Assembly (NCBI GenBank): GCA_947589525.1
Contig: CANQAW010000001.1
Location: 1-47,142 of the forward strand
Origin: Candidatus Gastranaerophilales bacterium
Lineage (GTDB): Bacteria > Cyanobacteriota > Vampirovibrionia > Gastranaerophilales > Gastranaerophilaceae
Length of the DNA: 47,142 nt
Reading direction: 5' to 3'
The position numbers and the translations under genes are program-made. Shown here piece by piece: positions 17,299-47,142 of this stretch. Under the pieces are notes generated by a model, which ran no database searches, was not told the DNA's origin, and saw only the letters and a list, made by a program, of their open reading frames with translations. Positions within the stretch are counted from its first letter, which is position 1. Each line of letters opens with the position of its first letter.

Positions 17299-17300
17299 AA

Positions 17301-25419: not shown

Positions 25420-25422
25420 AAT

Positions 25423-25845: not shown

Positions 25846-25853
25846 AACAAAGA

Positions 25854-27540: not shown

Positions 27541-27572
27541 TGACACAGTAAAAAGCAAAATATATTTACCCC

Positions 27573-27932
27573 ATGACAAATTTAAACGAAATTACATATA
27601 TTGACTGGCAATATAAACTCAACAAAATCGGCTCTGTCGCAGAAGGAGTTGATGACATTAACCAATGTATAGCGATAATTCTTACGACACGAAAAGGCTC
27701 AGTTCCTTTAAGACCGACATTTGGCTCTGAGATATATAAATATGTTGATTACCCTGTAAATGAGGCAATACCTAATATAACAAGAGAAACCATTGATGCA
27801 TTGGCTTTATGGGAAACAAGAATTATTGTCAATTCTGTCTCGGTCGAAATTAATGAGACACAAATTGTTATCAAAATTGAATGGACTTTGAACGGTAGTA
27901 AAACACAAGGAAATACAAGCGTTACACTATGA
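27573..27932 (+). CDS. baseplate protein gpW / gp25-like
   Basis: ..INQCIAIILTTRKGSVPLRPTFGSEIYKYVD.P.. motif. Confidence 0.8.
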   Translation: MTNLNEITYIDWQYKLNKIGSVAEGVDDINQCIAIILTTRKGSVPLRPTFGSEIYKYVDYPVNEAIPNITRETIDALALWETRIIVNSVSVEINETQIVIKIEWTLNGSKTQGNTSVTL

Positions 27933-30256: not shown

Positions 30257-30292
30257 TATGTACATTTACTAAACACGAAAGGAAAAACAAAA

Positions 30293-31857: not shown

Positions 31858-31867
31858 GGAGTTTTAT

Positions 31868-32338
31868 ATGAATGAAGAATTTTATGTAGGTCAAATTTTT
31901 GAGGGTGAATATCCCATTGAAGTTTCAGATTGGTGTACTGAAAGCGATAAATACAGTATTGAAGAAATAGACGAAAAAGACGGTAAAAGACGATTCCAAA
32001 TAAAAGAAATTCCGTCATTAACCCCACAGGAAAAAGAACAACAGTTTTTGGAAGACTTCTTTTATATACCTCAAATAGGATATTTCAGAAAAATACCAAA
32101 AGGCTACAACGGATTAGTTGAGGCTATGAATACAACATTTAACTTAGTTTCGTCATTAGGATATTTGCCTGAAAATACTTTGCAATTTTACAGAATACCT
32201 GATTTTACCAATGAGGATCAATGTAGCGAAGAATGGTTAATTGCTAATTCTTTCAAAAATTCGCAAATGACAAAAGAGGATTTTAATAACCTCTACATAA
32301 ATTGTATGACTGCTTGGAACAAGCAAGAACATTTATAA
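31868..32338 (+). CDS. hypothetical protein (possible fibre assembly/accessory protein)
   Basis: The start is moved to the ATG at 31868, after AAGGAG. 156 aa, acidic. The call is by position only. Confidence 0.4.
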   Translation: MNEEFYVGQIFEGEYPIEVSDWCTESDKYSIEEIDEKDGKRRFQIKEIPSLTPQEKEQQFLEDFFYIPQIGYFRKIPKGYNGLVEAMNTTFNLVSSLGYLPENTLQFYRIPDFTNEDQCSEEWLIANSFKNSQMTKEDFNNLYINCMTAWNKQEHL

Positions 32339-32352
32339 AGAAAGGAATTATA

Positions 32353-32862
32353 ATGACATCACTAACTAAAATCTGTCTGCATTGGACAGCAGGAACAAAT
32401 AGTCCAAATTCAACTGATTTAGAACATTATCACTTTTTATTTGATAAAGACGGCAAAGAATACAAAGGCACTTATACCCCACAAGATAATATTAACTGTT
32501 ATGACGGAAAATACGCAGCACATTGCGGTGGTGGGAACACAGGATGCATCGGAGTTTCTTGTTGTGGGATGTATGGTTTTAATTTAAAAGATAAAAAAAC
32601 AAAATATCCTCTCACTCAAAAACAAGTGGAGGCAATGTGTTCCAAAGTTGCAAAGCTATGCAGTTTATATGGAATCACAGTTTCAGAAAAAACTGTTTTT
32701 ACACATTATGAATTCGGTCAATCTCATCCTAAAACTTCAAGTTATGGAAAAATTGATTTCACATATCTTCCGTATTTGCCAAATCTATCAAAAGAGAGAA
32801 TTGGCGATTATTTAAGGAACAAGATTCAATGGTATCAAATTCAACAAAAGAAAGGAAAATAA
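32353..32862 (+). CDS. N-acetylmuramoyl-L-alanine amidase-type endolysin
   Basis: The start is moved to the ATG at 32353. ..ICLHWTAG..HYHFLFDKDG..AAHCGGGNTGCIGVSCCGM.. fits the amidase_2/PGRP pattern. Confidence 0.65.
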   Translation: MTSLTKICLHWTAGTNSPNSTDLEHYHFLFDKDGKEYKGTYTPQDNINCYDGKYAAHCGGGNTGCIGVSCCGMYGFNLKDKKTKYPLTQKQVEAMCSKVAKLCSLYGITVSEKTVFTHYEFGQSHPKTSSYGKIDFTYLPYLPNLSKERIGDYLRNKIQWYQIQQKKGK

Positions 32863-32863
32863 T

Positions 32864-33154
32864 ATGAGTATTTTATCATTTATCAAAAATTGGAAAGACT
32901 TCAGCACTATTTGGGCTATAATTCAACCATTTATTCTAAAACTGATTAAAAAGAAAGTTCCGACAACGATTACAAAACTGTACGAAAATCTTGCAAAATA
33001 CACACAGCCTGCGATTGATAGCTTGTTTAAATTAAAAGGAAAAATCCAAAACTCTCCGAACGAACTTGACGATTATTGTTTTAATCAAGGCGTTAATGCG
33101 ATTGAATCATTTGCAAATTATTTGCTAGAAACAGTTAAGACATTAAGAGCATAA
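32864..33154 (+). CDS. hypothetical protein
   Basis: 96 aa after the endolysin. No clear transmembrane helix, so not called a holin. Confidence 0.4.
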   Translation: MSILSFIKNWKDFSTIWAIIQPFILKLIKKKVPTTITKLYENLAKYTQPAIDSLFKLKGKIQNSPNELDDYCFNQGVNAIESFANYLLETVKTLRA

Positions 33155-33163
33155 GGAGTTTAT

Positions 33164-33784
33164 ATGTATTGGAAAGATATGCTGAATGTGCAAAATGTTG
33201 AAAAAGGTTTTTTCTCCTCCTCTAATCCCTATGGTATCCCTGATTTAAAACCGGATGAGTTTCCCATAAAGGAACTCATCCCCTACAGGGTTGATAAAAA
33301 CAGGAACGGAACGGCACACTTCTTTTTAGATGATTATCGTTTTGAGAGATGTTGGAAAAACGCAGACTCACAGCTTGCAGTTTTAAAACAATACGATGGA
33401 GTGTTATCTCCTGATTTTTCGATGTACACGAATTACCCCGAAGCTTTCCAAATTTGGCAAGTTTATAGGAACAGATGGTGTGCAAGATATTGGCAAGAAA
33501 ACGGAATAAAAGTTATTCCGACAGTCAGTTGGTCCGATGAATCAAGCTACAAATATGCCTTTTTAGGAATTCCAAAACATTCTGTTGTTGCAATTGGAAC
33601 AGTTGGTGTTTTGAATGATAAAAACGCTATAACTCTCTTTATACAAGGCTTTAAAGAAATGTTAAAACAACTTGAACCAAAAGAAATTTTGATTTATGGA
33701 AACAAACTGAGCGAACTTGACGGATATAAAAACCTCCGTTGGTTCGAACCGTACATGAATAAATTTAAGAAAGCGAGGTCATAA
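33164..33784 (+). CDS. DUF4417-like protein
   Basis: ..AHFFLDDYRFERCW..LSPDFSMYTNYP...QIWQVYRNRWCARYWQENGIKVIPTVSW.. matches my memory of the DUF4417 family. Function unknown. Confidence 0.55.
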   Translation: MYWKDMLNVQNVEKGFFSSSNPYGIPDLKPDEFPIKELIPYRVDKNRNGTAHFFLDDYRFERCWKNADSQLAVLKQYDGVLSPDFSMYTNYPEAFQIWQVYRNRWCARYWQENGIKVIPTVSWSDESSYKYAFLGIPKHSVVAIGTVGVLNDKNAITLFIQGFKEMLKQLEPKEILIYGNKLSELDGYKNLRWFEPYMNKFKKARS

Positions 33785-34251
33785 TGGGTGGTCGAGGTTC
33801 AGGTGGTGGCAAAGGTTCAAAAACTTCTTCAAGTAGTGCTCCAATTTCAAAAGGCGAAAAAATCTACCGAGAAAAGGTTTTAAAAAATTCTTACATAGGA
33901 ATGAATGAGTTTAAAGAAGTTAAAGAATACTTAAAAAATAATGCCTCAAAAGAAGAAATTTTAAAAGTTGCAAATCATTATGGAGAACTTTATAAAAATA
34001 AATTTGATATTTCAGGCGATACTGCTGCAATGTATAAAACCTATGAGAATTCTTTAAACACGTTGGCAGTACAAAAAGGAGGTTTTAAAAAAGCTGAAAA
34101 AATAAAATATATTAACGAAAAAGGTGGTTCTAATATTGACGTATCTGACAGTTATTCAAGTAAAGAAATTGATAAAATGTTCAAGCAAGTTGTTAAAGGT
34201 AAAAAGATGAAGAAAATTGGCTACGAATGGGTAGTTGATTATAACAGTTAA
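33784..34251 (+). CDS. hypothetical protein, MGGRGSGGG-headed, copy 1
   Basis: 155 aa. N-terminal MGGRGSGGGKGSKTSSSS, then a Lys-rich helical-looking body. Coupled to the DUF4417 gene by ATAATG. Confidence 0.6.
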   Translation: MGGRGSGGGKGSKTSSSSAPISKGEKIYREKVLKNSYIGMNEFKEVKEYLKNNASKEEILKVANHYGELYKNKFDISGDTAAMYKTYENSLNTLAVQKGGFKKAEKIKYINEKGGSNIDVSDSYSSKEIDKMFKQVVKGKKMKKIGYEWVVDYNS

Positions 34252-34266
34252 GAAAGTGAGGTAATC

Positions 34267-34914
34267 ATGGGTGGTCGTGGTTCAGGTGGTGGTAGAAGCG
34301 GAAAAGCATCTGCCGGTGGTGGAACAATGAAAAAAGATGAATTGATAAATTTATACAATAACATTTCAGGAAATCCGTCATACACGGTTGAAGAGAGAGT
34401 TCGTGCAATGTCATCAATAAAAAAAGAAATTGATAATATTGATGCCAAAGAAAAACCAAAAGAAAAAACAACTCAAGAAAAGAGACTGGAAGCTCTTGCT
34501 AAAGCTCGTGCAAAACGTGCAGAAAACAAAAAGAATGGAATAAAACCCGAAAAGAAAGAAAAAGACCCAAGAAGAACAAAAGCTAAAATGTCTATGGATA
34601 GCACAGTTTCAGACCTTAAATATAATTTGAGGCGAGGAGTTGAATCAGACGGATATATTTCAAATTCTGATTTCAGAGTTGAAGATTACGGAAATTCCGT
34701 CAGCGTTCAAATCAGATATTTAGGGAAGTGGAAAAATCCATCACATGCACGCTATGAGGAAGATTACGATTGGCAGGAACTTCGTTCTTCAAGTGGCAAA
34801 CAGATTGATAAAGTAATAAAGAAAATGTCAAAACAATCAGGCAGAAAAATCACTTGGAGTACAAGCGAAAAGAATTGGATTGATATTGATATTCCAAAAA
34901 TGAAAGGAGACTAA
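34267..34914 (+). CDS. hypothetical protein, MGGRGSGGG-headed, copy 2
   Basis: 215 aa. N-terminal MGGRGSGGGRSGKASAGGG, a highly basic middle (KEKPKEKTTQEKR..KRAENKK) and a distinct C-terminal domain. Confidence 0.6.
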   Translation: MGGRGSGGGRSGKASAGGGTMKKDELINLYNNISGNPSYTVEERVRAMSSIKKEIDNIDAKEKPKEKTTQEKRLEALAKARAKRAENKKNGIKPEKKEKDPRRTKAKMSMDSTVSDLKYNLRRGVESDGYISNSDFRVEDYGNSVSVQIRYLGKWKNPSHARYEEDYDWQELRSSSGKQIDKVIKKMSKQSGRKITWSTSEKNWIDIDIPKMKGD

Positions 34915-34917
34915 TTT

Positions 34918-35514
34918 ATGGGAGGTCGTGGTTCAGGTGGCGGTAAAAGTAGTGGTGGAGGTGGTGCATCTTCTACACCACCAAGATTAGTGAGTGTAAA
35001 TGATTATTATAAAGAAAAATACTCACAAATGAACGATTTGGAATTAAATCGTGCATACGTTAATGCACAAAATTTGATGAAAAAGGAACAAGCAAAAGTT
35101 TTATACGAACAGGAAAAACTTTCAAAAATGATGGAAGAATTTAAAGCATTACCTGCAAATCATCCTGAAGTAAATAAAAAATGGGATGCGATTGATAAAC
35201 AAATGTCAGTATTAAATGATGCTCGTTCAAAATCAAATATTCGTTCACAGGCATATCTATTGGCAGTCAATGAAAAATACAATATCAGAGCAAAATACAA
35301 CTCAAACGATATGAAAAGTATGACTAACGGACAGTTAAACTCTTTTTACAATAAATCATATAAAGAGAGCAGTAAGGCTCGGCAAAAAATCGAAAAAACC
35401 TCCAATCCTAAAACAAAAGCAAAATATCAGAAAATATATGATCAGCATAATAAAAACTTCTTTGCCGCAAACAATGAACGCAACAATCGTGGACTTGATG
35501 GAAAAGATTGGTAA
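34918..35514 (+). CDS. hypothetical protein, MGGRGSGGG-headed, copy 3
   Basis: 198 aa. N-terminal MGGRGSGGGKSSGGGGASS, with a body unrelated by eye to copies 1 and 2. Confidence 0.6.
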   Translation: MGGRGSGGGKSSGGGGASSTPPRLVSVNDYYKEKYSQMNDLELNRAYVNAQNLMKKEQAKVLYEQEKLSKMMEEFKALPANHPEVNKKWDAIDKQMSVLNDARSKSNIRSQAYLLAVNEKYNIRAKYNSNDMKSMTNGQLNSFYNKSYKESSKARQKIEKTSNPKTKAKYQKIYDQHNKNFFAANNERNNRGLDGKDW

Positions 35515-35608
35515 TTGTGTCTGAATGATACGAAATAATCGAAATAGACTTTAAATTCAGCAATAGTCGAGTGATGAATATGACTGTACTTAATTAAAGG
35601 AGGTCAGT
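35515..35608 (+). repeat. intergenic element R copy 1
   Basis: Starts 1 nt after the stop: TTGTGTCTGAATGATACGAAATAATCGAAATAGAC..CAATAGTCGAG... Shares its 5' block with copies 2 and 3. Confidence 0.8.
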
Positions 35609-36427
35609 ATGACAACAATTACACCCGAAGAAGCATTAAAAAGTAAGAAAAACTTTGAAGAGTTTATGACTGATTATTATCCGCCAATTGTAACTTCAAC
35701 ATTAGCAAGTTATCCAAAAGCTGATGGACAAACCGTTGTATCCATTTGTGATTTAACACAGAAAATGGAAACAATGGTTTCGCTCTTGAATGAAATTGAG
35801 AGTTTAAATCTAAATAAAGCTCCGTTTATCGTTTGGTATGTAACTTCAGAGAAAGAAGAATTGGTAACGGCAGCAAAAGCATTAAATCATTTTTCGATTA
35901 AAGGCATTAAAATATTTATTTTTAAAGCCTTTTTGAATGGCGATAAAATGGGCTTTGAATGCCTTTTGAAACCCGAATTAAATGATAAAAAAACTTATAC
36001 AAGAAATGAAAATACCCCTGCGAAAATATTTCAAAAAGAATATTGGGAAAAATATTTCGAGATTTGTGATGAATTACAAAGCGAAATGCAAGTTAATCCA
36101 AAGCCACAACATTTTCAATATTTGCCTATGGGTAAGCGTGGGGTTCAAATAATGCAAACCGTAAATACCAAATTAGGATATGTCGCAACAGAAATTTTTA
36201 TCAATAACGATCAGACAATTTTTGAGAAATTATTGGAACATAAAGTTGAAATTGAAGAGGAACTTGGATTTTTAGAATGGCAACCGATAGAAGATAAGAA
36301 ATCCTCACGCATAAGAAAAACACTCGGAGTAGATATTTTAAAAGAAGGAAATATTGAAAGAGCTGTTAAACTCCAAATCCAAACGGCAGAAGATTTTAAG
36401 AAAGTATTTTCAAAGTATTTAGTATAG
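35609..36427 (+). CDS. hypothetical protein with a DUF4268-like C-terminal half
   Basis: 272 aa. The C-terminal ..YWEKYFEICDEL..QYLPMGKRGV..ATEIFINNDQTIFEKLLEHKVEIEEELGF.LEWQP...KKSSRI resembles DUF4268 from memory. The N-terminal half is not recognised. Confidence 0.4.
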   Translation: MTTITPEEALKSKKNFEEFMTDYYPPIVTSTLASYPKADGQTVVSICDLTQKMETMVSLLNEIESLNLNKAPFIVWYVTSEKEELVTAAKALNHFSIKGIKIFIFKAFLNGDKMGFECLLKPELNDKKTYTRNENTPAKIFQKEYWEKYFEICDELQSEMQVNPKPQHFQYLPMGKRGVQIMQTVNTKLGYVATEIFINNDQTIFEKLLEHKVEIEEELGFLEWQPIEDKKSSRIRKTLGVDILKEGNIERAVKLQIQTAEDFKKVFSKYLV

Positions 36428-36441
36428 AAAAGGCGGTAAAA

Positions 36442-36645
36442 ATGAGAAATATACAATTTTTAAAAGATTTATATCCGGCAGGAACAAGAGTGAAATTAGT
36501 TGAAATGAATGACATACAAGCACCGCCTATCGGGACTTTGGGAACTGTAATGTACGTTGATGACATCGGAACTATTCACATTAAATGGGATAACGGTTCA
36601 ACCCTTGGAGCAGCATATCCCGAAGACAGGGTAACAAAGATTTAA
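36442..36645 (+). CDS. DUF4314-like small protein
   Basis: 67 aa. ..GTRVKLVEMNDIQAPPIGTLGTVMYVDDIGTIHIKWDNGSTLG.. matches my memory of DUF4314. Confidence 0.55.
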   Translation: MRNIQFLKDLYPAGTRVKLVEMNDIQAPPIGTLGTVMYVDDIGTIHIKWDNGSTLGAAYPEDRVTKI

Positions 36646-36745
36646 ATTGTGTCGGAATGATACGAAATAGGTGCAATAGACTTGAATAGTCGCTGCACCT
36701 ATTCGATTAATGTGAATGCTAGTAAGACCAAGAAAGGACAACATT
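36646..36745 (+). repeat. intergenic element R copy 2
   Basis: ATTGTGTCGGAATGATACGAAATAGG.., a 10-bp stem at 36666-36675/36694-36703 with an 18-nt loop, then GATTAATGTGAATGC. Confidence 0.85.
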
Positions 36746-36970
36746 ATGGGCATTTATTTAGAAGAAAAAGAAGAAAAAAATTATCAAGCATTTATGGATG
36801 AATTAGAAAAAATTTCTAAAAAGTATGGCATAGCTTTTGAAGGCTGTGGAGTGTTTGCATTCAGCGATGAAAACGGTTTCAAAAGCATCAAATACCGTAA
36901 GGATTCTTCAAGCGGAGACTTGAGAATCGATGAATTAGTATTTAGTGATGGCACAAAAGCTGACAGATAA
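36746..36970 (+). CDS. hypothetical small protein (74 aa)
   Basis: The start is moved to the ATG at 36746, after GAAAGGA. MGIYLEEKEEKNYQAFMDELEKISKKYGIAFEG... Confidence 0.45.
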   Translation: MGIYLEEKEEKNYQAFMDELEKISKKYGIAFEGCGVFAFSDENGFKSIKYRKDSSSGDLRIDELVFSDGTKADR

Positions 36971-36982
36971 GGAGATATAAAT

Positions 36983-37321
36983 ATGGCAACAACAAAAACA
37001 AAAACAGAAAAAATTATAGAAGATATAACTTACGCATCAAGCAATCAATCAATTTCAAGACGTGTAATTTATGAATTTAAAAATTTAAAAGTTATGTTGG
37101 AACTAAAATCGGATAGTTACAGAGGACAATGTTATGCAAGAGCATCAGTTCTTGATAACTTGGAATGGCGTGTTATTTATTTTATTCCACATGCAGAAAT
37201 GAGAACTCCGGAAGGACTTTGTCATTATCTTCCATACAGAGACACTAAAGCTCCAAATGCAAAAAAAGAATTCGACAAAGATATCGAGCGTTTAAAAAAG
37301 TATATTTCAGAACTTCTTTAA
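36983..37321 (+). CDS. hypothetical protein (112 aa)
   Basis: An ORF with an RBS-like GGAGA upstream. No family recognised. Confidence 0.45.
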   Translation: MATTKTKTEKIIEDITYASSNQSISRRVIYEFKNLKVMLELKSDSYRGQCYARASVLDNLEWRVIYFIPHAEMRTPEGLCHYLPYRDTKAPNAKKEFDKDIERLKKYISELL

Positions 37322-37416
37322 TGTGTCGAAATGATACTGAATAGTCTTTAATCACTTGAATTAATGACTATTCAGAGGCATTAATGTCAATGTAAATAAA
37401 CGAAAGGCGGCATATT
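37322..37416 (+). repeat. intergenic element R copy 3
   Basis: TGTGTCGAAATGATACTGAATAGTC.., a 10-bp stem at 37337-37346/37366-37375 with a 19-nt loop, then CATTAATGTCAATGT. Confidence 0.85.
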
Positions 37417-37722
37417 ATGACAGTAGAAAATTTAAAAGATTTTGACAGAACATTATTTGGAACAAAGATTGTAAACTTCAATACTCAAAAACTAGGTTTA
37501 ATCCTTTATACTTGGACAAACGTTTATGCCGATGCACATATCCCGTTTGCAACATGTGTTGATGAAAATGGCAAAAAATATAATGTATCAATGGATGACA
37601 TCAGAGCAATTGAAGATTTAGATGAAGACGAACTTCAAGAATTAGGCTTAAGGTATAAGGAGATAAACTATGAAATTAAAAATTATATTTCAAAAAGACA
37701 AATATATTGTTGGAATTACTGA
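37417..37722 (+). CDS. hypothetical protein (101 aa)
   Basis: An ORF after GAAAGGCGG. Its 3' end overlaps the next small ORF, so the true stop region is uncertain. Confidence 0.4.
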   Translation: MTVENLKDFDRTLFGTKIVNFNTQKLGLILYTWTNVYADAHIPFATCVDENGKKYNVSMDDIRAIEDLDEDELQELGLRYKEINYEIKNYISKRQIYCWNY

Positions 37723-38053: not shown

Positions 38054-38362
38054 CTATTTAGGGAGTGGAGGTTTTTTGGCTTTTCTTAATTCTTTTCTTA
38101 TCACTGCCTCAACGTGTCTTTGAGACAATTCGCATTCAATAACTAAGCGATTTAAGGTCATTTTTGTGCCGTCATATTCTTTTATAATGTAACGCTCTTT
38201 TATCTTTTTTAATGCGTGTTTTGGAATATTTACTATCAATCCCGGTAAACAAAAAATTAAGGTCAAAGCGGTTTTAATCCCTGCACATTGTGCAACGAAT
38301 TTTAAGTCATCGTTTGGCATATCTTCAATTGTAATATTTTCCATCCATGGCTTAAATTCCAT
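38054..38362 (-). CDS. Mor/C-family transcription activator
   Basis: 102 aa. ..GIKTALTLIFCLPGLIVNIPK....IKERYIIKEYDGTKMTLNRLVIECELSQRHVEAVIRK fits the Mor family layout with its C-terminal HTH. Confidence 0.65.
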   Translation of the reverse strand: MEFKPWMENITIEDMPNDDLKFVAQCAGIKTALTLIFCLPGLIVNIPKHALKKIKERYIIKEYDGTKMTLNRLVIECELSQRHVEAVIRKELRKAKKPPLPK

Positions 38363-38452
38363 AGCTCTCCTCTTGTTATTTATACGGTCTCGTCAGTTGG
38401 AGCCTTACTCCAAGACGGTCAGCTTGCACTGTTAGCCGACCGTTTCGACCTG

Positions 38453-38764
38453 TTAGCCTGCCATTGCCATTGTTGGCATTGGAGTAAGCATAGATTCAAA
38501 GTCTTGTCGCAATTTAGAAAGAATTGCGATTTGTCCCTCAATTACCTTGCAAGCAATTTCTCTTTCCTTTGCCATACTCCAGTTGTCTTTATCCAGAGTC
38601 GCATCAGCAAACTTCAATTTTGCATCATAGAGTTGGTTCGTAAGGTTATCTGACATGTTGTTAATTAGTGTCATAATTGCACATTCTTTCGGTTCTTCAG
38701 GGGCGATTTCCCCGAAGAATTGCTTGCTTACCATTTTTGAATTGTCATTTTTTTCTGAATTCAT
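38453..38764 (-). CDS. hypothetical early protein
   Basis: 103 aa. No family recognised. Confidence 0.4.
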   Translation of the reverse strand: MNSEKNDNSKMVSKQFFGEIAPEEPKECAIMTLINNMSDNLTNQLYDAKLKFADATLDKDNWSMAKEREIACKVIEGQIAILSKLRQDFESMLTPMPTMAMAG

Positions 38765-38791
38765 TTTTTTCTCCTTCTATTTTTCTACTAC

Positions 38792-39244
38792 TCAAAGTGT
38801 GGCCGCACTCTTCTTTATTTTTAAATTCTTTTTTATAGCCTGTAGAGCCTGAATAACCTTACAGGCTTTGGCTTTAGTTAGGAACATAACGTCATCAACT
38901 TTAAACTTGGATTTTAAAAACTTTCTAAGGGATTTTTTTGCAAACTCGTCATTGTCGTGATAACAAATCTCACGCCATATACCTTCAATCATTCGAAGTT
39001 GTGCATCGCTTGCCATATTATCGCTACGATGTAAAGTTTCATATTTTTTTAAGCGTTTTTCCCAACGGTTTATAGCAACAGCTTTTTCTTCCAAGATTTC
39101 AATAAAAATAATCGCTTCTGTATAGGTTAAATTTTTAGAAGTCTGAACATCAAAAGATTTAAGCATTTCACGATATAAATCGTCATTTAGTCCAAGAGCA
39201 TTTTTTAATGTATGGATTTTTCTAATTTGAGAAGTCGTAGCCAT
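38792..39244 (-). CDS. Mu gp16/GemA-like (DUF1018-type) protein
   Basis: ..QIRKIHTLKNALGLNDDLYREML..FDV.TSKNLTYTEA..FIE.L......ASDAQLRMIEGIW.....LRKFL...F.V.D..FLT...A.KVIQAL fits the family pattern. Confidence 0.75.
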   Translation of the reverse strand: MATTSQIRKIHTLKNALGLNDDLYREMLKSFDVQTSKNLTYTEAIIFIEILEEKAVAINRWEKRLKKYETLHRSDNMASDAQLRMIEGIWREICYHDNDEFAKKSLRKFLKSKFKVDDVMFLTKAKACKVIQALQAIKKNLKIKKSAATL

Positions 39245-39408: not shown

Positions 39409-40293
39409 CTACACCATCAATAACTTAGAAGTATGTTTAATCACAGCATTATCGACCTCAGCTTTGCCATTGAATTTGGCAATGCTAATACTGTGAGAAA
39501 TAAGATGTTCCAATCTTCTTGTATTACCACCTGAATACTGAAGATAGGTTTCAGCCAGTTCGGTATTTTGCTCAATGGTTTCAAGGATTTTTATTACATC
39601 CTGAATGAGCAAGCTATCAATTATTTTCGTGTATTTTACTCTTGAATACAGTTGGTCATATTGGTTGTTATAACCTTTTAGGTTTTCAAGTAAAATACCT
39701 CTTCCGATTAACAGGACACCAACGCCTGTTTTATCGTGAATTCTTCTAGTAATTTCTAATGCTCGGTACGGAAGATTTTCGGCTTCGTCAATAATTAAAA
39801 GTCTTCCTGATTGATTTAACTTTCTTACGACTTCGCCCATCAAATCATATACAGAGCCTTTACCTGAAAGTCCGAGCCTCCTGTGTATTTCCTTTAAAAG
39901 AGATTTTGCCGTATAGCCTGAATCACTTTCAATTAATATTGAATCCAAGAATTCCTGAGTGTATTTTTTTACGGCAACGGTTTTTCCCAAGCCGGCACGA
40001 CCTACACAAACTCCGATTTTACCTTGCGTATGGCATAAACGAGCTATTTCGGAAATGTATTTTACGATAGATATATTTACGAACGGCAAATCGTTTTCTA
40101 CGGCACGTTCACGTTCCCTTTGAATAAAATTATTTATTGCATCGGTAACTTTGTCATTCTTACCGTTATAAGTACCGTTTAACCACATACTAATTGTAGA
40201 TTTTGCAAGTCCTGTTGCAGTTGAAATATATGCGGTACTATAACTATTCTTTTCCATTAAATCTCGAAGTTCGGCTCTAATATCCATACGCAA
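39409..40293 (-). CDS. MuB-like AAA+ transposition ATPase
   Basis: N-terminal HTH (..ISTATGLAKSTISMWLNG..), Walker A GRAGLGKT, Walker B LLIIDEAE. Overlaps the transposase stop. Confidence 0.8.
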   Translation of the reverse strand: MRMDIRAELRDLMEKNSYSTAYISTATGLAKSTISMWLNGTYNGKNDKVTDAINNFIQRERERAVENDLPFVNISIVKYISEIARLCHTQGKIGVCVGRAGLGKTVAVKKYTQEFLDSILIESDSGYTAKSLLKEIHRRLGLSGKGSVYDLMGEVVRKLNQSGRLLIIDEAENLPYRALEITRRIHDKTGVGVLLIGRGILLENLKGYNNQYDQLYSRVKYTKIIDSLLIQDVIKILETIEQNTELAETYLQYSGGNTRRLEHLISHSISIAKFNGKAEVDNAVIKHTSKLLMV

Positions 40294-42298
40294 CTCCTTT
40301 TTCAGCTAAATTGTTATTTGAAAGGGCATACTTTTTCTTCATATTTATTCCCTCTTCCTCAAGGATTTTGTCTGTTTCAAATAAATAAAGCGTTTCCTCA
40401 TATTGAGGGTTTTTATCAAGAAAAATAGACAAATCCTGTCTGCCAAATGCTTCCATTTCTTTATTTTTGCGAATTGCCTCATCCATTTTGGTATTGGCAA
40501 TTATGGAAACATTTGTTTTCTCTTTTGGTTTTGAATCCTTTATTACGGAAGAATATGCGACCTTATAATTGTCACAGATTTCTTCAAGACCGATTTCACG
40601 ATTTTGTTTTATGTATGATTTTGCTACGTTCAAATGGCGTTTTTTAGCTGCCATTGCTTCCTTAAATTCTTCTTTTGATATTTCATTTGCGTGTAATGCA
40701 GCCACAGCCTTAACTGCCGTAACTTTACCGACAAATTCCTCGTTATCAGCCCTGAACACCCAAGCCTCTTTATAATTTTGGACATCTCTGCGGAGATAAA
40801 CCTTTAATCCCGTTTTTGACATCATCCAATCTGCCCAGTAAGTAATACCGAATTCGCTGTCTTTGATGCCGTTTCTTCCGATAGTAAAGTTCTTTGATGT
40901 TCTCATACAGAACAGTTTTAATGCATCACGTGAGGTTGTAATCTTACCTTCAAATTCCATATCAAATAATTCATCAGGGGATAAGCCTTGCAGGTTTTTA
41001 CCTCGTGATGGTTTTTTATTTAAAATATTGATAACGAAATCATCAAAGATAGTCTTAAACTTTTCAAATGGAATTATTTTTCCGGCTTTTATTTCTTTTG
41101 CAAGTTTCTCTGGTCTTTCGACAACATTGCCGCCACGATAACCAACAGAATGTTTTGAGATTAATTCTTTAATTTTCAAGAAGTCTCTTTCTATTGGTTT
41201 AGTCTGTGCATTATACGGTAATGCAAAATGCACTTGAACATTTAACTCATCAAGCATAGATGTTGTTCTTGACTTGTTCGTGTCTATTTTTATAACCTGT
41301 CTGCCTCCGGCAAAATCTTTACAACGATAATCTTTACCGTTATCAATAATTACATCTTCAGGTAAACCAAAGGCTTCTGCTGCGTAGTAGAATGCCTGAA
41401 ATATTCTGTCAGAATTCGGACTACCGCAAGCTAAAAGCCAACCGAGCCATTTGCCTGATTTGTAATCTCGCCAAGCCGTAACCCAAGGAAATACGACATT
41501 GCCATCCGGTCCAAGACAAGCTACATCAATTTGAGCGTGGTCTGATACCCATACTTTGCCGGATATAATATTTGAATAATCTCTGTCAACATAGCATCCA
41601 TATTTACGATTCCATGCACTTTGTCCCTTGCGTGCTAAATATACACTTTGTTTTGGAATCATTTTGTCTAATTTTCTTTTAAATGATGTATGGCTTGGAA
41701 ATGATTCTCTACTACAACCAAAATTTTTGATTGCATATCCAAGTGTTAATTCCCAACAACTTAATAATGATGGCGAACCTTCAACTAAATACAAGCTCTT
41801 AAAATAATCAAATAATTCATCCGATACGGTTGATTTATCTGCCCTTGAACCATATCTTGCTAATAACCCTTCAATACCATCACTTTTGTATCGTTTACGC
41901 ATTTTAATTACAGAAGGATACGAGGTTTTATATTCAGGATTTTGGACATTCCAGTTTAATATAAATCGTTCAAGAGCATTTCCCTTTAGATATTTTGATT
42001 CTTTGATTATTCTTATATATTTATCAGCTTGCAGTTTAGCCCATTCAGGTGCATTGGTATAACTTTCAGATTCTATAATTTTGTCTTGAGATATATTCTG
42101 TTCTTTTAATTCTTCAGGTAATGAATCGACATGAATGTAGTAAGTAAGACGTTTCCCAATTTTAATAATTTTATGGATATATTCTCCGCATCGACAACGG
42201 TCTTTCAATGTTTTAGGCTTGATTAATAAAATGTTGCAAGCCTCATCTTCTGAAAGCCATTCTTTTGAGTTGTTAATAATAGGATTATAGTTCAGCAT
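40277..42298 (-). CDS. MuA-type DDE transposase
   Basis: 673 aa. N-terminal HTH region and a DDE core: VWVSDHAQIDV .. VIIDNGKDY .. YNAQTKPIERDF. Confidence 0.85.
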   Translation of the reverse strand: MLNYNPIINNSKEWLSEDEACNILLIKPKTLKDRCRCGEYIHKIIKIGKRLTYYIHVDSLPEELKEQNISQDKIIESESYTNAPEWAKLQADKYIRIIKESKYLKGNALERFILNWNVQNPEYKTSYPSVIKMRKRYKSDGIEGLLARYGSRADKSTVSDELFDYFKSLYLVEGSPSLLSCWELTLGYAIKNFGCSRESFPSHTSFKRKLDKMIPKQSVYLARKGQSAWNRKYGCYVDRDYSNIISGKVWVSDHAQIDVACLGPDGNVVFPWVTAWRDYKSGKWLGWLLACGSPNSDRIFQAFYYAAEAFGLPEDVIIDNGKDYRCKDFAGGRQVIKIDTNKSRTTSMLDELNVQVHFALPYNAQTKPIERDFLKIKELISKHSVGYRGGNVVERPEKLAKEIKAGKIIPFEKFKTIFDDFVINILNKKPSRGKNLQGLSPDELFDMEFEGKITTSRDALKLFCMRTSKNFTIGRNGIKDSEFGITYWADWMMSKTGLKVYLRRDVQNYKEAWVFRADNEEFVGKVTAVKAVAALHANEISKEEFKEAMAAKKRHLNVAKSYIKQNREIGLEEICDNYKVAYSSVIKDSKPKEKTNVSIIANTKMDEAIRKNKEMEAFGRQDLSIFLDKNPQYEETLYLFETDKILEEEGINMKKKYALSNNNLAEKGVAYGY

Positions 42299-42518
42299 CT
42301 ATTACTTCGTAGTCCTTTATTTTAATACCCAACAAACGTTCTATGACAAAAATATCAATTTCCAGTCTGTTTTTCTCACCCGTAAAGTGTCTGCTTACAA
42401 TGCTTTTAGATAGATGTAATTCGTTTTCAATTTCTCTTGACCTAAGATTAATTACAGCAATGATTGTTTTGATAACGAATTGTTTTTTGCATAAATTACA
42501 AATTTCCATAATACTCAA
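42285..42518 (-). CDS. Ner/Cro-like small HTH regulator
   Basis: 77 aa directly upstream of and overlapping the transposase. HTH ..LRSREIENELHLSKSIVSRHFTGEK... Confidence 0.5.
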   Translation of the reverse strand: MSIMEICNLCKKQFVIKTIIAVINLRSREIENELHLSKSIVSRHFTGEKNRLEIDIFVIERLLGIKIKDYEVIDAEL

Positions 42519-42695
42519 TTCCTCTCTTGTATATAGTTAAGCGACCTATATTCAAGTAATGGTTTTTATTTGAAATATTTGAACCAGATGTTTGATTGAT
42601 TTTTTGCACAGCAGAATTTCCCCCTGTAAAAGAGGTATTTTCGGGTGTAAAAACATCTACCTGATTATCTTAATTATATTAAATGCAAGAGTATT

Positions 42696-42719
42696 TAAAA
42701 GCCTTGTGCAAAGTGCTTT
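42696..42719 (-). repeat. repeat B copy 3 (inverted)
   Basis: The reverse complement reads AAAGCACTTTGCACAAGGCTTTTA, a 21/24 ungapped match to 8895-8918. Confidence 0.8.
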
Positions 42720-42720
42720 T

Positions 42721-42732
42721 GAGAATATTCTC
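42721..42732. promoter_or_regulatory. perfect 12-bp palindrome GAGAATATTCTC
   Basis: Self-complementary sequence abutting repeat B copy 3, in the gene-free 326-bp spacer between the two transposition modules. Confidence 0.4.
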
Positions 42733-42844
42733 ACAGCAAATGCACTAATATCGTTTTTTAAATTTTGCAAAAAACATTATTTTTTTATGTCGATATTAAC
42801 TAAAAAGGGATTTAAAAAATTAGGGAAAAGTTTATTAAGAAATA

Positions 42845-43528
42845 TTAAGAAATTAGATTGTTTTTTAAATCAGAATACAATTCCTCGAAACTTTTTTCTC
42901 TTCGCCAAAGACTTTCTGCCAATCTTTGATACAAATAAACTTCATTCTGATTATGACTTTCAATTCTTGCAAGATAGCAATACATCTTTTTGAATTCTTG
43001 CTCTTCTTCCTGTGTAAAATTATTCTCTCGCTTTGCTTGGAGCGGTTTCTTTGTTACAAAAATTTTGTTATTGTAGTTATAGAAATACGCATATTTCTCA
43101 AAAAACTTTCTGAACCTGAATTTTTGTGGATTTTTACAGTAATGGTTAACTAACTCATTTAATTGTCTTTCATAAATCAAATTCCGAAATATCTTGTAAA
43201 AATCCGCAATGCAATTATCCCCGACACCCGTTAAATATGAAACTTTTATTGTTGGTAATTCTGCACAAAAACTTCTCATTATTAAATCAACAGTTTCGGG
43301 AGAATGATACATGAACATCAGTTTTAAATTTTTAGATTCAATTCCGTTTTTAGTTGGTAATTCTTCTATCGCAGAATAAATTCCGTCTTTTTCTTGAATT
43401 TTATTTTCGTTGATTAAAAATAGTAAAATCACTTCTAAAACAGAAGGTTCAATATCCATCAATTGTGTAATATCGTTAAGCGTACAGTTTTTCAATCTTT
43501 TGCACAGTTTTAAAATTCTGTCTTTCAT
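42845..43528 (-). CDS. hypothetical protein, N-terminal winged-helix-like; third gene of the second transposition module
   Basis: 227 aa. The N-terminus ..LNDITQLMDIEPSVLEVILLFLINENKI.. looks wHTH-like. The C-terminal ..FKKMYCYLARIESHNQNEVYLYQRLAESLWRRE.. loosely recalls the C-termini of IS1595-type proteins, but no DDE core was seen. Confidence 0.35.
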   Translation of the reverse strand: MKDRILKLCKRLKNCTLNDITQLMDIEPSVLEVILLFLINENKIQEKDGIYSAIEELPTKNGIESKNLKLMFMYHSPETVDLIMRSFCAELPTIKVSYLTGVGDNCIADFYKIFRNLIYERQLNELVNHYCKNPQKFRFRKFFEKYAYFYNYNNKIFVTKKPLQAKRENNFTQEEEQEFKKMYCYLARIESHNQNEVYLYQRLAESLWRREKSFEELYSDLKNNLIS

Positions 43529-44207
43529 TTAAAATTCCTTTCAAAATATATTCGTCTAACTCTTTTAAATCATTTGTTTCCGATAATTTTTCGAGCCGTT
43601 CTATTAATTTAATCAACTGTCGGAACTGATTTGTTCGTGTTGCAAGATAGTTAACAGCATCAGGTGTAAAGTTTAGTTCGGTTAATTGCTCCAATATTTC
43701 CCTGATATCTTCCTGATTAAAATGTTCAAATTTTAATTTCTGATAAATCCTGTCCTCAAAGTGTTTAAACCTTGCAATCTTTTTATCCATCATCCCCATT
43801 CCGACAAGCACTATTGGAGTGCCGCTGTTGTCTTGAATATCCCGTAAAATTTCAATCACGTTTTTATTCCCTATAAGATAGTCTGCTTCGTCAACAATAA
43901 TTATTTTTGGCTCTTGCTTTAAATGTTTTAAAATCAAACTGTAATTTTCTTGCATTTGGTAAAACGGTCGTTCTCCAAGTTCTTCAACAATTCCTTTTAA
44001 TAATCCGTTTTGGGTAATTTCATTGTTTGCTCTAATATATACGGCATCATTCCTTACCGCCCACCACATTATAGAATGTGTTTTACCCAAGCCATGTTCG
44101 CCATAGACTAATGCCAACTTCGGAATGTTTGGCGGAAGTTTTTGCAACTTATCCATTAAAGTTACAAAGTTTTTCACATTTTTTGTTTTTACAAATACGT
44201 TTTTCAT
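43476..44207 (-). CDS. AAA ATPase, TniB / Tn552-ATPase / MuB-like (short form)
   Basis: 243 aa. Walker A GEHGLGKT, Walker B IIIVDEAD. Lies 3 nt downstream of the transposase stop. Confidence 0.75.
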   Translation of the reverse strand: MKNVFVKTKNVKNFVTLMDKLQKLPPNIPKLALVYGEHGLGKTHSIMWWAVRNDAVYIRANNEITQNGLLKGIVEELGERPFYQMQENYSLILKHLKQEPKIIIVDEADYLIGNKNVIEILRDIQDNSGTPIVLVGMGMMDKKIARFKHFEDRIYQKLKFEHFNQEDIREILEQLTELNFTPDAVNYLATRTNQFRQLIKLIERLEKLSETNDLKELDEYILKGILNERQNFKTVQKIEKLYA

Positions 44208-44210
44208 AAT

Positions 44211-46220
44211 TTAATCTCCATACATATTTATATATTCATCACTTTTCATATAGCTGACTAGCCACTTTCTATCTTCTTGATTTATTGTTCCGTTGCTCAT
44301 TAGCCATTCAAATTTTTCATAATTTGAATTAAAAAACGGTCTGTTCATTTGCTGTTCACGAGGTGTTTTCTTGCGTTCTTTTTTAGGTTTTTCTTCAATT
44401 TGTTGTTCCAATTCTTCTATTTCTAAAACAGGCTCTGCCTCAATTTCCAGAAGCTGTATTTCTTCTTTAGGGAAAGTCTTTTTAACTTGTTTAATCAGCC
44501 TGTGTTTTAATTGTTGTTGCTTTTGGTACTGATACTTGTATTCTTCCATTTCCTTGACCGTTCCAAGAACTCCCGCCATCGGATGAACTTTTTGAACCCT
44601 ATGAGCTACGCATAAAAACTCACCTTTTGTTGAATACACGTGTATTTTTGAAAGGTCAAATAAACTGTATCGGATATTTACTTTGTCCCTAATCCCAATA
44701 ATAGCCTCACTTCTGTAATGCATATTCAAGAATGTTATTCCATGTCTATTGATTGTTCTGCATTCTGTTTTCATCATTAAATCATCCAAGACTTGAGGAT
44801 TAATATTGTGTTTTTGAACGCTGTCTAACATCTCTTGAATAGTTTTTGAACGGTCATTAGGACAAAGATTTTTGTTGTGAAATTTAATCCATCCGTTAAT
44901 ATATTTTATTGTTTCTTGTACTGTCGGGATGTGGTTATTCGTCAGTTTTTTATGCCATTCTTCGTGTAACTTCTCACCCCGTTTTAACCACGCAGGTTTA
45001 TCTTCAATACAAGTTCCGATATAGCTTGGCATTCCTTTTTCAAATTCTTCCTGAAATTCCCTGAAAAATCTCTCAATGACTTTGGCTCGTGCATTATACG
45101 GTTTTGCAAAAACGGAGTGAATGTTTAAATTTGCATACACTCCGTTAAATAGATCTTCTTCAAAGTCTGTATTTTGAAAAAACCTCGATTTAAACGCTTT
45201 GCCGTTATCTTGATATACGACCTTTGGAAGCATTCCGAGATTGATGATTGAGTTTCGCAAGGCGGATGCAATACATTGTGTGCTTTCAGTCATCATAATC
45301 TCATACCCGACAAGTGCTGTAGATTTCCAATCTAAAAAACCGACAAGAGTTGCTCTTGTCGGTCTGCCAGTAAACGGATTAATCACTTGAAAATTCAAAA
45401 CGTGTCCGTCTGCGACTAAAATATCTCCTACCTCAATTTTTGAAATATCTCTTTCGATATACGGTTCAACTTTGTCGTGATATGCTTTCATTCCCTCTCT
45501 GCGTAAAATCCATTCTGCGTAATTGTTCTTTCTAAAATTCTCGGCAAATCTTTTAAAAGATAAATCACAAGGCAATTCTTCATATCCTCTTTTTCTCAAA
45601 ATTTCTTTTGTGAGTTTTATTGCTTTTCCGTAATTATACTTGCTTGGATGGAGTAACAGGGTTAATAAAATGTTTCTCATTTCATCATTTAAAATTGAAT
45701 TGTATTCTCCCTGTTTTGACCATTTGTATTTTGGTTGTAAACACTCTGTTGATTCGTGTTTTTCAAATGCTCTAACCCAGCGATGTAAAGTTCCGATTGA
45801 TATGCTTCCGATAAAACTATATGCCTTTGGAAGATACAATCCCGAATTATACAACTCTAAAAATGTTGTGTCTGCCTCTTTTTTAGTCGGATATTTTTTG
45901 CGAAGTTTTTGTAATGCTACGACAATATTCGCTCTATAATTTGCTGTTAGTTTTGTTTTATCCGATATAAAATCAGGTTCTTTGTAATTATGAGGTACGA
46001 GTGCTGTTGTTTTATTTTCAGCCTCTCTGAGTTTCTTTTGTATCTCAGGCTCTAAACTTGAAAACAATATTTCATAACTTGTTCCACCATTGACCTTAAT
46101 TTCACGAGAAATATATTTACTCTCGATTTTATTTAGTTCCAATCGGAGTGAACGAGTCGAGGTTAATCCTTTTGCCTCTGCCACATCCTTAATATTAATA
46201 TATTTATTATCTTCATTCAT
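44211..46220 (-). CDS. second Mu-type DDE transposase
   Basis: 669 aa. N-terminal HTH (..INIKDVAEAKGLTSTRSLR..) and a DDE core: ILVADGHVLNF .. VVYQDNGKAF .. YNARAKVIERFF. Confidence 0.8.
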   Translation of the reverse strand: MNEDNKYINIKDVAEAKGLTSTRSLRLELNKIESKYISREIKVNGGTSYEILFSSLEPEIQKKLREAENKTTALVPHNYKEPDFISDKTKLTANYRANIVVALQKLRKKYPTKKEADTTFLELYNSGLYLPKAYSFIGSISIGTLHRWVRAFEKHESTECLQPKYKWSKQGEYNSILNDEMRNILLTLLLHPSKYNYGKAIKLTKEILRKRGYEELPCDLSFKRFAENFRKNNYAEWILRREGMKAYHDKVEPYIERDISKIEVGDILVADGHVLNFQVINPFTGRPTRATLVGFLDWKSTALVGYEIMMTESTQCIASALRNSIINLGMLPKVVYQDNGKAFKSRFFQNTDFEEDLFNGVYANLNIHSVFAKPYNARAKVIERFFREFQEEFEKGMPSYIGTCIEDKPAWLKRGEKLHEEWHKKLTNNHIPTVQETIKYINGWIKFHNKNLCPNDRSKTIQEMLDSVQKHNINPQVLDDLMMKTECRTINRHGITFLNMHYRSEAIIGIRDKVNIRYSLFDLSKIHVYSTKGEFLCVAHRVQKVHPMAGVLGTVKEMEEYKYQYQKQQQLKHRLIKQVKKTFPKEEIQLLEIEAEPVLEIEELEQQIEEKPKKERKKTPREQQMNRPFFNSNYEKFEWLMSNGTINQEDRKWLVSYMKSDEYINMYGD

Positions 46221-46348: not shown

Positions 46349-46621
46349 TTATTTTACTAATTCTTTAAACTTTTTGCCGGCAGAGAATACAGGTACTGTT
46401 TTTGCTGCGATTTTAATCTCTTTACCTGTTTGTGGATTTCTTCCGTTTCTTGCTGCTCTTCTTCTTGATTCAAATGTTCCGAATCCTACAAGAGTAACTT
46501 TGTCACCTTTTTTAACTGTGTGTTGGATTGATTCAACGGTTGCTGATAATACTTCACTTACTGCTTTTTGAGATAGCTTTGTTGATTTTGCTATTTCTTT
46601 TACTAATTCTTCTCTATTCAT
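46349..46621 (-). CDS. hup: HU-family DNA-binding protein
   Basis: 90 aa. MNREELVKEIA..LSQKAVSEVL....ESI...V.KGDKVTLVGFGTFE.R.R.AR.GRNPQTG..I.I.A...P.F.AGK is the canonical HU/IHF signature. Confidence 0.9.
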   Translation of the reverse strand: MNREELVKEIAKSTKLSQKAVSEVLSATVESIQHTVKKGDKVTLVGFGTFESRRRAARNGRNPQTGKEIKIAAKTVPVFSAGKKFKELVK

Positions 46622-46750: not shown

Positions 46751-46774
46751 AAAATAATCATACTATCCGTAAAT
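46751..46774 (+). repeat. repeat C copy 1
   Basis: AAAATAATCATACTATCCGTAAAT, 23/24 identical to copy 3. Confidence 0.85.
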
Positions 46775-46825
46775 TATCAACATGGCGTAAACTTCTGCTA
46801 TAATTGATTTTGAAAGCAATTTTAA

Positions 46826-46849
46826 AAAATAATCAAACTAACCGTAAGC
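46826..46849 (+). repeat. repeat C copy 2
   Basis: AAAATAATCAAACTAACCGTAAGC, 21/24 identical to copy 3. It shares the upstream TTTTAAAA extension with copy 3. Confidence 0.85.
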
Positions 46850-46938
46850 GAGTAAAAAAAGTTAAAATGTGTGTAGTTTGATTTTTTTACATTTTTTCAC
46901 TTCCGACCGCCAAAACTCAAACAACAAGCCACTTTTAA

Positions 46939-46962
46939 AAAATAATCATACTAACCGTAAAT
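46939..46962 (+). repeat. repeat C copy 3
   Basis: AAAATAATCATACTAACCGTAAAT. Confidence 0.85.
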
Positions 46963-47069
46963 AATCCATCTACTCGTTAAATAACACTTGCTTCGCTCCG
47001 TCCGTCCGCAAATCCGCTCGAACCCAGGACAAGGCTTCGCCTTGTCTGGGTTCGTACCACATTCCACAT

Positions 47070-47107: not shown

Positions 47108-47142
47108 CGGAGAGGGTGGGATTCGAACCCACGGTGAACTTT
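47108..47142 (-). tRNA. tRNA 3' portion (probably tRNA-Ser), truncated by the window edge
   Basis: The reverse complement reads ..AAAGTTCACCGTGGGTTCGAATCCCACCCTCTCCG. It shows a T stem GTGGG/CCCAC with a TTCGAAT loop, the acceptor 3' strand CCTCTCC and discriminator G. The GGAGAG-type acceptor with G73 fits Ser. The anticodon lies outside the window and CCA is not encoded. Confidence 0.75.

Follow-up and report, generated by a model that had tools for sequence, protein, structure and literature searches.

The window, that is, the whole stretch of DNA analyzed here, is an entire metagenomic contig of 47,142 bp (33% G+C) from a member of the Gastranaerophilales, uncultured gut relatives of cyanobacteria. 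A complete Mu-type myovirus with a single structural gene set (PHROG matches) spans 9.2 to 46.99 kb, and its left arm carries two transposition modules, both on the minus strand. Module 1 consists of A1, a MuA-type DDE transposase of 673 aa (40277-42298), and B1, a MuB homolog of 294 aa (39409-40293). Module 2 consists of A2, a DDE transposase of 669 aa (44211-46220), and B2, a short AAA+ ATPase of 243 aa belonging to the MuB/TnsC/TniB superfamily (43476-44207). An earlier note, made from the sequence alone, had reported these four open reading frames (ORFs) with the same positions, lengths and strand, and we confirmed them together with the gene for a 227-aa protein (42845-43528, minus strand) and the gene-free 326-bp spacer (42519-42844) that it had described. 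Our analysis adds a gene for a 77-aa helix-turn-helix (HTH) protein, an HU gene and, outside the range covered by that note, an element end at position 46988 with four repeated sites.

Both transposases match the Mu-transposase family phrog_310 over nearly their full length (E values of 7e-84 for A1 and 1e-105 for A2), and both keep their catalytic triads (D253, D319 and E370 in A1; D271, D338 and E383 in A2). The triad is invariant in 29/29 A1 homologs and 77/77 A2 homologs, and the DDE-context peptides quoted in the earlier note were found in the translations, where those of A1 and A2 can be aligned. A1 and A2 share 28% identity across 217 aa, in the catalytic core only, while B1 and B2 are 25% identical, in agreement with the strong divergence noted before. 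In A1, the Pfam domains HTH_Tnp_Mu_2 (Mu I-gamma), DDE_2 and Mu-transpos_C each exceed the threshold, and PDB matches include TnsB (4e-12) and the MuA core (2e-8). Mu-transpos_C (1e-15) is the sole Pfam domain over threshold in A2, and ShCAST TnsB was its sole match, a weak one (3e-4), among solved structures. Phage Mu-type transposases score far better against A2 than TnsB does, and the nearest annotated relatives of A2 are phage transposases, e.g., those of phiRTG5 and the D3112/DMS3 group.

The MuB-type family phrog_296 was matched by B1 (6e-77) and B2 (2e-42). B1 corresponds over its full length to MuB (PDB 8xvb; residues 4 to 279, E 2e-22), and its match to the N-terminal domain 2mqk (5e-6) bears out the MuB-like N-terminal HTH that had been assigned to it. 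B2 is without this domain and was rightly called short and TniB-like: it passes Pfam TniB (34.1 bits; cut-off, 22.4) and also matches AAA_22. In profile comparisons, B2 was about equally distant from MuB (1.6e-8) and TnsC (VchTnsC, 2.6e-8; ShTnsC, 4.5e-6). Relatives of B2 on cyanobacterial plasmids sit in three-gene units made up of a transposase with the Mu C-terminal domain, a short ATPase and a small protein; when compared, this small protein and the 227-aa protein were unrelated.

The 227-aa gene overlaps the end of B2, and in the loci compared, A2-B2 was always accompanied by it. Its product had no match in Pfam, NCBIfam or PHROG. The AlphaFold 2 model (mean confidence score pLDDT, 88.6) has an N-terminal winged helix and a C-terminal alpha/beta domain. 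In a structure search with this model, residues 1 to 55 alone matched known folds, which are generic winged HTH folds, the C-terminal domain had no structural match, and TniQ was not retrieved. The single full-length structural relative was an uncharacterised gut-virome protein. The gene occupies the tniQ position, as the earlier note had it, but it does not encode TniQ by Pfam or fold. We consider the protein a candidate target selector, or a regulator.

Between the 227-aa gene and A1 lie the spacer and the 77-aa HTH gene (42285-42518, minus strand). The latter overlaps the A1 start, has weak HTH matches only and holds the position of Mu Ner; a small ORF was found at this position in every A1-carrying locus. 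The spacer bears the element AAAGCAC-N4-CACAAGGCTTTTA at 42696-42719 (minus strand) and probably is a cis-regulatory region of the A1 cassette, with which it was exchanged in L101. The motif is also copied within a switch on the right side of the phage, the 24-bp element recurring there at 8895-8918 in inverted relative orientation. Promoter scans were negative or uninformative.

An HU-family DNA-bending protein (Pfam Bac_DNA_binding, E 2e-32) is encoded just inside the left end (46349-46621, minus strand). Its gene moves with the element in loci L001-L010, L022-L024, L082 and L090, while HU at the left end is confined to the window lineage and a few others and is absent from most relatives. 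Mu transposition requires HU at the Mu left end, and by analogy the phage-borne copy at this place is suggestive.

Left end, tRNA genes and joint movement of the modules

The left end (LE; 46753-46988, minus strand) has its terminus at 46988 and reads inward 5'-TGTTATTTAACG. It comprises four repeated sites with the consensus ACGNNTAGNNTGATTATT (46960-46977, 46941-46958, 46828-46845 and 46753-46770), whose occurrence is non-random. L001, a phage of 99% identity at a different site, ceases to be homologous to the window exactly at ...AATAACA|, corresponding to window position 46988, and the terminal motif is kept across species. Furthermore, in four independent metagenomes, contigs break at 46986-46988 and then run into differing sequences. 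One loose end, CGCTATCCGG, before 46986 had no match among the compared sequences.

Facing the LE with its 3' end, the 3' part of a tRNA (T-arm and acceptor) lies at 47109-47142 on the minus strand. The gene runs off the window, and since it is incomplete at the edge, ARAGORN made no call; the fragment aligns with the tRNA 3' ends of L001 and L004 and has very high depth in all runs. The LE terminus is ~121 bp from the tRNA 3' end in the window, the commonest distance across loci being 42 to 62 bp. In 40/61 loci, the 1.3 kb upstream of A2 contain the end of a tRNA gene on the same strand, the background being 0.025 per 1.3 kb. In a further 13/61 loci, the tRNA gene is located more distantly upstream, which is explained by extra genes or stacked elements. 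Insertion of module 2 is orientation-specific, and its site is a gene class (15 anticodons) and not one locus. Likewise, the prophage copies seen are non-randomly placed and adjoin tRNA genes. This location downstream of tRNA genes suggests targeted insertion.

Alleles of the 227-aa protein that are 93 to 98% identical occupy Ser/Arg, Gly/Asp and Met/Gln tRNA sites. Because near-identical alleles are found at different tRNA species, recognition of tRNA genes seems to be generic, as far as sequence comparison can indicate. Co-variation between the 227-aa protein and tRNA identity was also considered; it was weak (p ~0.006, the same for B2), is contradicted by these alleles and was rejected. As a separate observation, L003 and L005-L008 (~9.0-9.2 kb) differ from L004 by an island (integrase, RtcB, IstB-like ATPase and methylase) inserted in the tRNA-Met gene upstream of the phage, and this island leaves a partial tRNA copy beside the phage end.

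The gene order HU-A2-B2-227aa-small HTH-A1-B1-GemA-Mor was found in L001 and also, at a third site, in an 87%-identical lineage (L003-L010). Of the 40 species-level loci for which the available sequence was sufficient, both modules are complete in 13, A2, B2, the 227-aa gene and A1 occur without B1 in another 13 (class ii), and module 2 stands alone in a further 13 (class iii). In all 26 A1-carrying loci (26/40), A1 starts 385 to 630 bp past the 227-aa gene. Per-gene identities to the window form a mosaic across loci. In L101 (2160-4336), the spacer, the small HTH gene and A1 were swapped as one cassette relative to window 40277-42844; the breakpoint is ~15 bp past the 227-aa stop codon, the flanks are 97 to 100% identical on both sides, and the identities within the swapped cassette are 36% and 81%. 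The constant architecture despite such recombination points to a functional unit. Two IMG/VR contigs (L194 and L196, one of them 33.9 kb long) start 1 base past the 227-aa stop codon, which we judged to be provirus trimming at a gene boundary and not a DNA end.

That both arms belong to one element is indicated by internal-deletion derivatives. Left-arm genes are joined to right-arm genes in L011, L144, L050 and L084. In metagenomes X1 and X3, the assembly graphs branch at 42704 with an alternative path corresponding to window 11813-11842; reciprocally, the loose end at 11844 continues into 42706-42733 (joint 11844|42706). In both, the full prophage is accompanied, at approximately half its depth, by a copy from which 30.9 kb have been deleted internally.

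Module 2 also exists on its own. Its right end (RE) was defined by tandem-array junctions (L079, L058 and L081) and by the far side of L084; it ends ...TTTACA and has inverted copies of the LE sites. L084 is a complete 12.1-kb element (LE and RE) without A1, in which A2 is frameshifted, and stacked module-2 arrays occur at tRNA genes in L079, L081 and L058. Based on these arrangements, module 2 is in all probability a self-sufficient tRNA-homing module. More generally, the class ii and iii relatives are phage-free, cargo-carrying elements with Mu-family transposase and ATPase genes. Several LEs can be stacked behind one tRNA gene (L079, at 3228, 6802 and 9647; L081; L058; L084; L088), with short non-autonomous elements of 2.8 to 3.5 kb between stacked LEs, and in L088 three truncated LE copies (7366, 7410 and 7432) are 22 to 44 bp apart.

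The matches of A2 and B2 to the phage families phrog_310 and phrog_296 and the phage affinity of A2 could be taken to mean that module 2 derives from another transposable phage, as its decaying remnant or its satellite, and adjoins the present prophage by chance, which was reading (a) of the earlier note. We regard this as very improbable: A2, B2 and the 227-aa gene are all intact and are kept in at least 77 loci, with the invariant A2 triad described above; module 2 has its own functional-looking, defined end beside a tRNA gene; no other phage genes accompany it; and the same arrangement recurs across species.

We conclude that both modules move as one block to many chromosomal sites. In structural terms, the best-supported of the three readings offered in the earlier note is (c), one unit with two intact modules in fixed order that is targeted to many tRNA sites. 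Specifically, the window would represent one composite mobile unit, a Mu-family transposable myovirus with a second transposition module in its left arm ahead of the Mu early region, to which we assign a probability of roughly 0.55.

Phage body, right arm and search for a right end

The late genes of the myovirus (9853-37722) form two divergent blocks, in which each structural gene is present as one copy only. Portal, Mu-F-like, protease, capsid, sheath and tail-S (Pfam Phage_tail_S) genes were identified together with terminase, tape measure and baseplate/tail genes; the minus-strand block (9853-19834) holds portal, head, sheath and tail-S, and the plus-strand block (20042-37722) holds a holin-like gene, terminase, tape measure and baseplate. 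This layout is colinear in Mu and divergent in the window, and L116 has yet another order of the same genes. The Mu-type early/middle genes (38054-39244, minus strand) encode a Mor-like late activator (38054-38362; phrog_836, late transcriptional activator), a 103-aa protein and GemA (38792-39244; Pfam GemA, E 1e-15). Thus, GemA, Mor and tail-S represent Mu-type accessory and late genes in the window, and Portal_Mu and Phage_Mu_F were found in related loci. No close DNA relative was found among deposited phages. Relatives of A2 are abundant in gut metagenomes, and those in species-representative genomes belong to Gastranaerophilales/Melainabacteria.

Two DNA methyltransferase genes (10283-11101 and 11890-13077; PHROG matches) are embedded among the head genes of the late region. 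In related phages, the second one is replaced by an N6/N4 methylase gene and a PAPS-reductase-like gene (L013, 1960-3879; L113, 4494-6400), and from sequence this position may be a variable slot for anti-restriction or modification functions. In L116, a second Mu-type early region with Mor-like and GemA-like genes (15572-16444) lies in opposite orientation 6.5 kb past the recombinase of the first phage.

The right arm of the phage carries a gene for a 180-aa tyrosine recombinase (9241-9783, minus strand; Pfam Phage_integrase, E 1e-21). In 44/69 independent loci, the recombinase gene follows 47 to 102 bp after tail-S, and this linkage identifies it as a phage gene. Next to it is an invertible switch (8851-9184) with the inverted repeats AGGTCTTTTGTAT (8880-8892) versus ATACAAAAGACCT (9026-9038) and GTACAAAAGACCT (9172-9184). 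The flipping segment (8893-9025) is 133 bp long, and conserved sequence stops near 8851. Indeed, this segment is in the opposite orientation in L013 and L116, and the opposite-strand joints 8893/9026 and 8879/9186 were detected in three metagenomes (X1, X3 and X4). Its appearance is that of a phase-variable switch directed toward the genes downstream. The suggestion that the recombinase and the repeat field are the resolvase and the site or end of a transposon does not survive these data, which make the former a tail-S-linked gene and the latter an invertible switch.

Other lineages show the same layout of recombinase and switch with their own repeats, followed by LuxR-type regulators, second recombinases or polysaccharide genes. 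A different case is L113 (8450-9500), which is 97 to 100% identical to the window from sheath to Dam, yet without the tyrosine recombinase; past tail-S it has other inverted repeats, AACACAAT..ATTGTGTTACATG, and an ORF of 204 aa that may be another invertase system. In the window, polysaccharide synthesis genes occupy 1.7 to 8.8 kb (1733-8837). Polysaccharide/glycosyltransferase operons recur after recombinase and switch at different sites (L011, L012, L103, L108, L112, L159, L160 and L183), and identical recombinase proteins precede three different downstream gene sets. Recombinase homologs with 82 to 84% identity also head chromosomal polysaccharide loci, in L103 with an LE remnant and a tRNA gene and in L108 with neither. 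The polysaccharide genes may be cargo or flank, or may result from recombination between switches. The possibility that the recombinase and polysaccharide genes are the host flank of an empty site was considered; L108 supports a chromosomal version, but the LE remnant in L103 and the tail-S linkage counter it.

No RE of the module-2 type was found between the modules or anywhere else in the 47-kb window. The search used the site consensus, the LE terminal motif, regular expressions derived from five observed REs and paired core sites, in addition to local alignments against 8.8-9.9 kb, the spacer and the first 1.75 kb of the window; its extension to viral contigs was also negative. Moreover, an A2-type RE was seen in no A1-carrying locus, terminal repeats common to the left and right window regions were not detected, and no target duplication was found at the unit ends, of which the LE alone is defined. 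Alignments past tail-S in recombinase-less lineages yielded lineage-specific accessory DNA without a host junction. A Mu-size headful is ~39 kb, which the span of ~38 kb from the left end to the switch would fit.

Two positions deserve mention as right-end candidates. Position 8888 (TGTATTGAAAGCAC) was considered for the right terminus of a Mu-type genome, with the inverted 24-bp copy at 42696-42719 as its counterpart, but was rejected because conserved sequence continues to ~8851 and the motif lies within the flipping segment, and also because the spacer copy is lost upon the A1-cassette swap and no fitting 5-bp duplication exists. The junction TTTGATTACA in L116, a single case, is a possible right end.

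The lack of an A2-type RE in the window would be explained if module 2 belonged to a larger tRNA-homing transposon with its RE beyond the window and with the recombinase, switch and polysaccharide genes as cargo, into which a Mu-like phage had inserted with its own A1-recognized ends in the spacer and near the recombinase. This corresponds to reading (b) of the earlier note, and part of it holds true: module 2 is separable and transposon-like, and it forms complete phage-free cargo elements (L084). The switch is followed by polysaccharide genes in several loci at different sites, L103 presents a tRNA-Leu gene, an LE remnant and then the recombinase and polysaccharide genes, and the 24-bp element is inverted between the spacer and 8895-8918. 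In addition, recombinase homologs directly follow the 227-aa gene in L059 and L046, the contiguity that the note had proposed to look for in phage-less forms. Such adjacency can come from internal deletion, however, and the deletion seen directly in the metagenomes explains these empty-looking loci.

Nesting of the prophage is also difficult to reconcile with the constant distance of A1 from the 227-aa gene (26/40 loci), which random Mu-type insertion could not give, and with the recombinase being tied to tail-S. Furthermore, the 24-bp element is missing from the swapped spacer of the otherwise identical L101, and one of its copies is inside the flipping segment. By inspection, TG...CA termini with a 5-bp duplication could not be placed there. 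Finally, the polysaccharide genes of the window are absent from samples that hold the phage and the switch. On balance, an inserted prophage of this kind appears unlikely; against a larger enclosing transposon as such, the data speak less clearly.

Proposed roles of the modules and comparison with known systems

Based on the MuB character of B1, the autonomous tRNA-linked relatives of module 2 and the established knowledge of Mu and Tn7, a division of labor between the modules can be tentatively proposed. Reading inward from the left end, through LE, HU, A2, B2, the 227-aa winged HTH protein, the small HTH protein, A1, B1, GemA and Mor, A2 would bind the repeated LE sites, B2 would serve as an adaptor resembling TnsC/MuB, and tRNA genes would be marked by the 227-aa protein or by a host feature that it reads. 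The A2-side machinery would direct the incoming genome to a safe site at lysogen formation; thereafter, A1 and B1 would transpose it replicatively, in the manner of Mu, to non-specific targets in the course of lytic growth. The phage would thus possess two pathway-dedicated machines, an A2-B2 pair with a new non-TniQ winged HTH selector that homes downstream of nearly any tRNA gene, by generic and not sequence-specific recognition, and yields a harmless lysogen, and a MuA/MuB pair for random lytic replication. We hold this functional proposal with less assurance than the composite structure, and we rate it as somewhat below an even chance.

Several observations weigh against the composite unit or the roles assigned to its parts. 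No inverted copy of the LE sites or of the terminal motif is present in the 47-kb contig, so that a unit with two A2-type ends must exceed the window and a Mu-size headful. A1 binding sites were identified at neither end, and the repeat associated with the A1 cassette (42696-42719 and 8895-9107), which was swapped with A1 in L101, has the behavior of regulatory DNA. The 13 class ii loci, which have A1 next to non-phage cargo and lack B1, are not predicted by a simple role of A1/B1 in lytic replication. Contig depths were equal for both modules in four metagenomes. In addition, the samples anchored on A2 and on tail-S are biased to loci that keep those genes.

The class ii loci, in which A2, B2, the 227-aa gene, the small ORF and A1 are kept intact, could alternatively mean that A2 and A1 are subunits or sequential actors of one machine, serving different ends or steps, and that B1, GemA and the virion genes were added later in the phage branch. 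In line with this, both DDE triads are invariant, A1-carrying loci lack an A2-type RE, and no terminal repeat is common to the left and right window regions, as would fit ends recognized by different proteins. But some elements (L084 and those in the tandem arrays) are bounded on either side by A2-type sites, showing that A2 sites can serve both ends, and the exchange of the spacer-HTH-A1 cassette independently of A2-B2-227aa is hard to square with tight co-adaptation. Our literature search also gave no precedent for a heteromeric transposase with two DDE subunits in this superfamily. We therefore consider cooperating transposases improbable, and slightly more so than a nested prophage.

Textbooks present Mu-type phages as the prime example of integration that is random and mutagenic, and Tn7-type elements as that of safe-site targeting. 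If the proposed division of labor is true, phage Mu and a Tn7-style safe-site system are fused in one virus, and a widespread gut phage lineage with both machineries, located behind tRNA genes only, shows how a transposable virus can spare its host upon lysogeny. The phage would provide a natural system for studying the sharing or partitioning of a single set of DNA ends between two related transposases. Its small non-TniQ partner protein, which apparently serves many tRNA genes, would represent a new kind of target selector, of interest also for insertion tools that require a landing site that is generic, conserved and non-disruptive. A literature search returned nothing on a Mu-type phage with two transposition modules, on generic tRNA-gene targeting by such elements or on Gastranaerophilales prophages; as far as this search shows, the family is the first described from this order.

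Among Mu and Mu-like phages (Mu, BalMu-1, the D3112/B3 group and the Fusobacterium phage phiRTG5), the similarities are extensive. Module 1 corresponds to a canonical Mu early region from the Ner-position HTH gene to Mor, the virion gene types include Mu portal, Mu F and tail-S, the terminus starts 5'-TG and has several repeated sites, and Mu, too, has an invertase-type recombinase on its right arm. Known Mu-like phages insert almost at random. In contrast, the Gastranaerophilales family sits downstream of tRNA genes in one orientation, and it has a second transposase-ATPase pair and the 227-aa protein where Mu-like phages have one pair (checked for phiRTG5). Further differences are that no divergent repressor gene adjoins the early operon in the window and that the window recombinase is of the tyrosine and not the serine type, flipping a 133-bp segment and not tail-fiber genes as in Mu.

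Module 2 resembles TnsA-less Tn7-like elements, such as the type V-K CRISPR-associated transposons (CASTs) with TnsB-TnsC-TniQ, and Tn5053/Tn402 (tniA-tniB-tniQ-tniR), in having genes for a DDE transposase, a short AAA+ ATPase and a small DNA-binding protein inward from one end. Several repeated, putative transposase sites at the ends and the stacking of elements at the attachment site are further shared features, and B2 passes Pfam TniB and matches TnsC structures. As in module 2, homing of V-K, I-B2 and I-D CASTs to tRNA genes is orientation-specific and occurs at a set distance downstream (PMC10293859, PMC9881144). However, TnsD/TniQ homing has one-site specificity (PMC10293859, PMC9881144), whereas one 227-aa allele serves many tRNA species, and the 227-aa protein has neither a TniQ (PF06527) domain nor a TniQ-like fold. 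Neither TnsA nor a TniR resolvase with a res site was found in the window, and module 2, unlike V-K CASTs, Tn7 and Tn5053, comes without a CRISPR component, TnsA or resolvase. Moreover, A2 is closer to phage Mu-type transposases than to TnsB, and an entire phage and a second transposase are part of the unit.

Finally, phage-like, cargo-carrying Mu transposons, including hosts of I-A and V-F CASTs, have been described (PMC11656645). The class ii and iii relatives resemble them as phage-free elements that carry cargo and Mu-family genes. The Mu transposons of that study are RNA-guided and have a single transposase, whereas here tRNA genes are apparently targeted by a protein-based mechanism and many members have two transposases.

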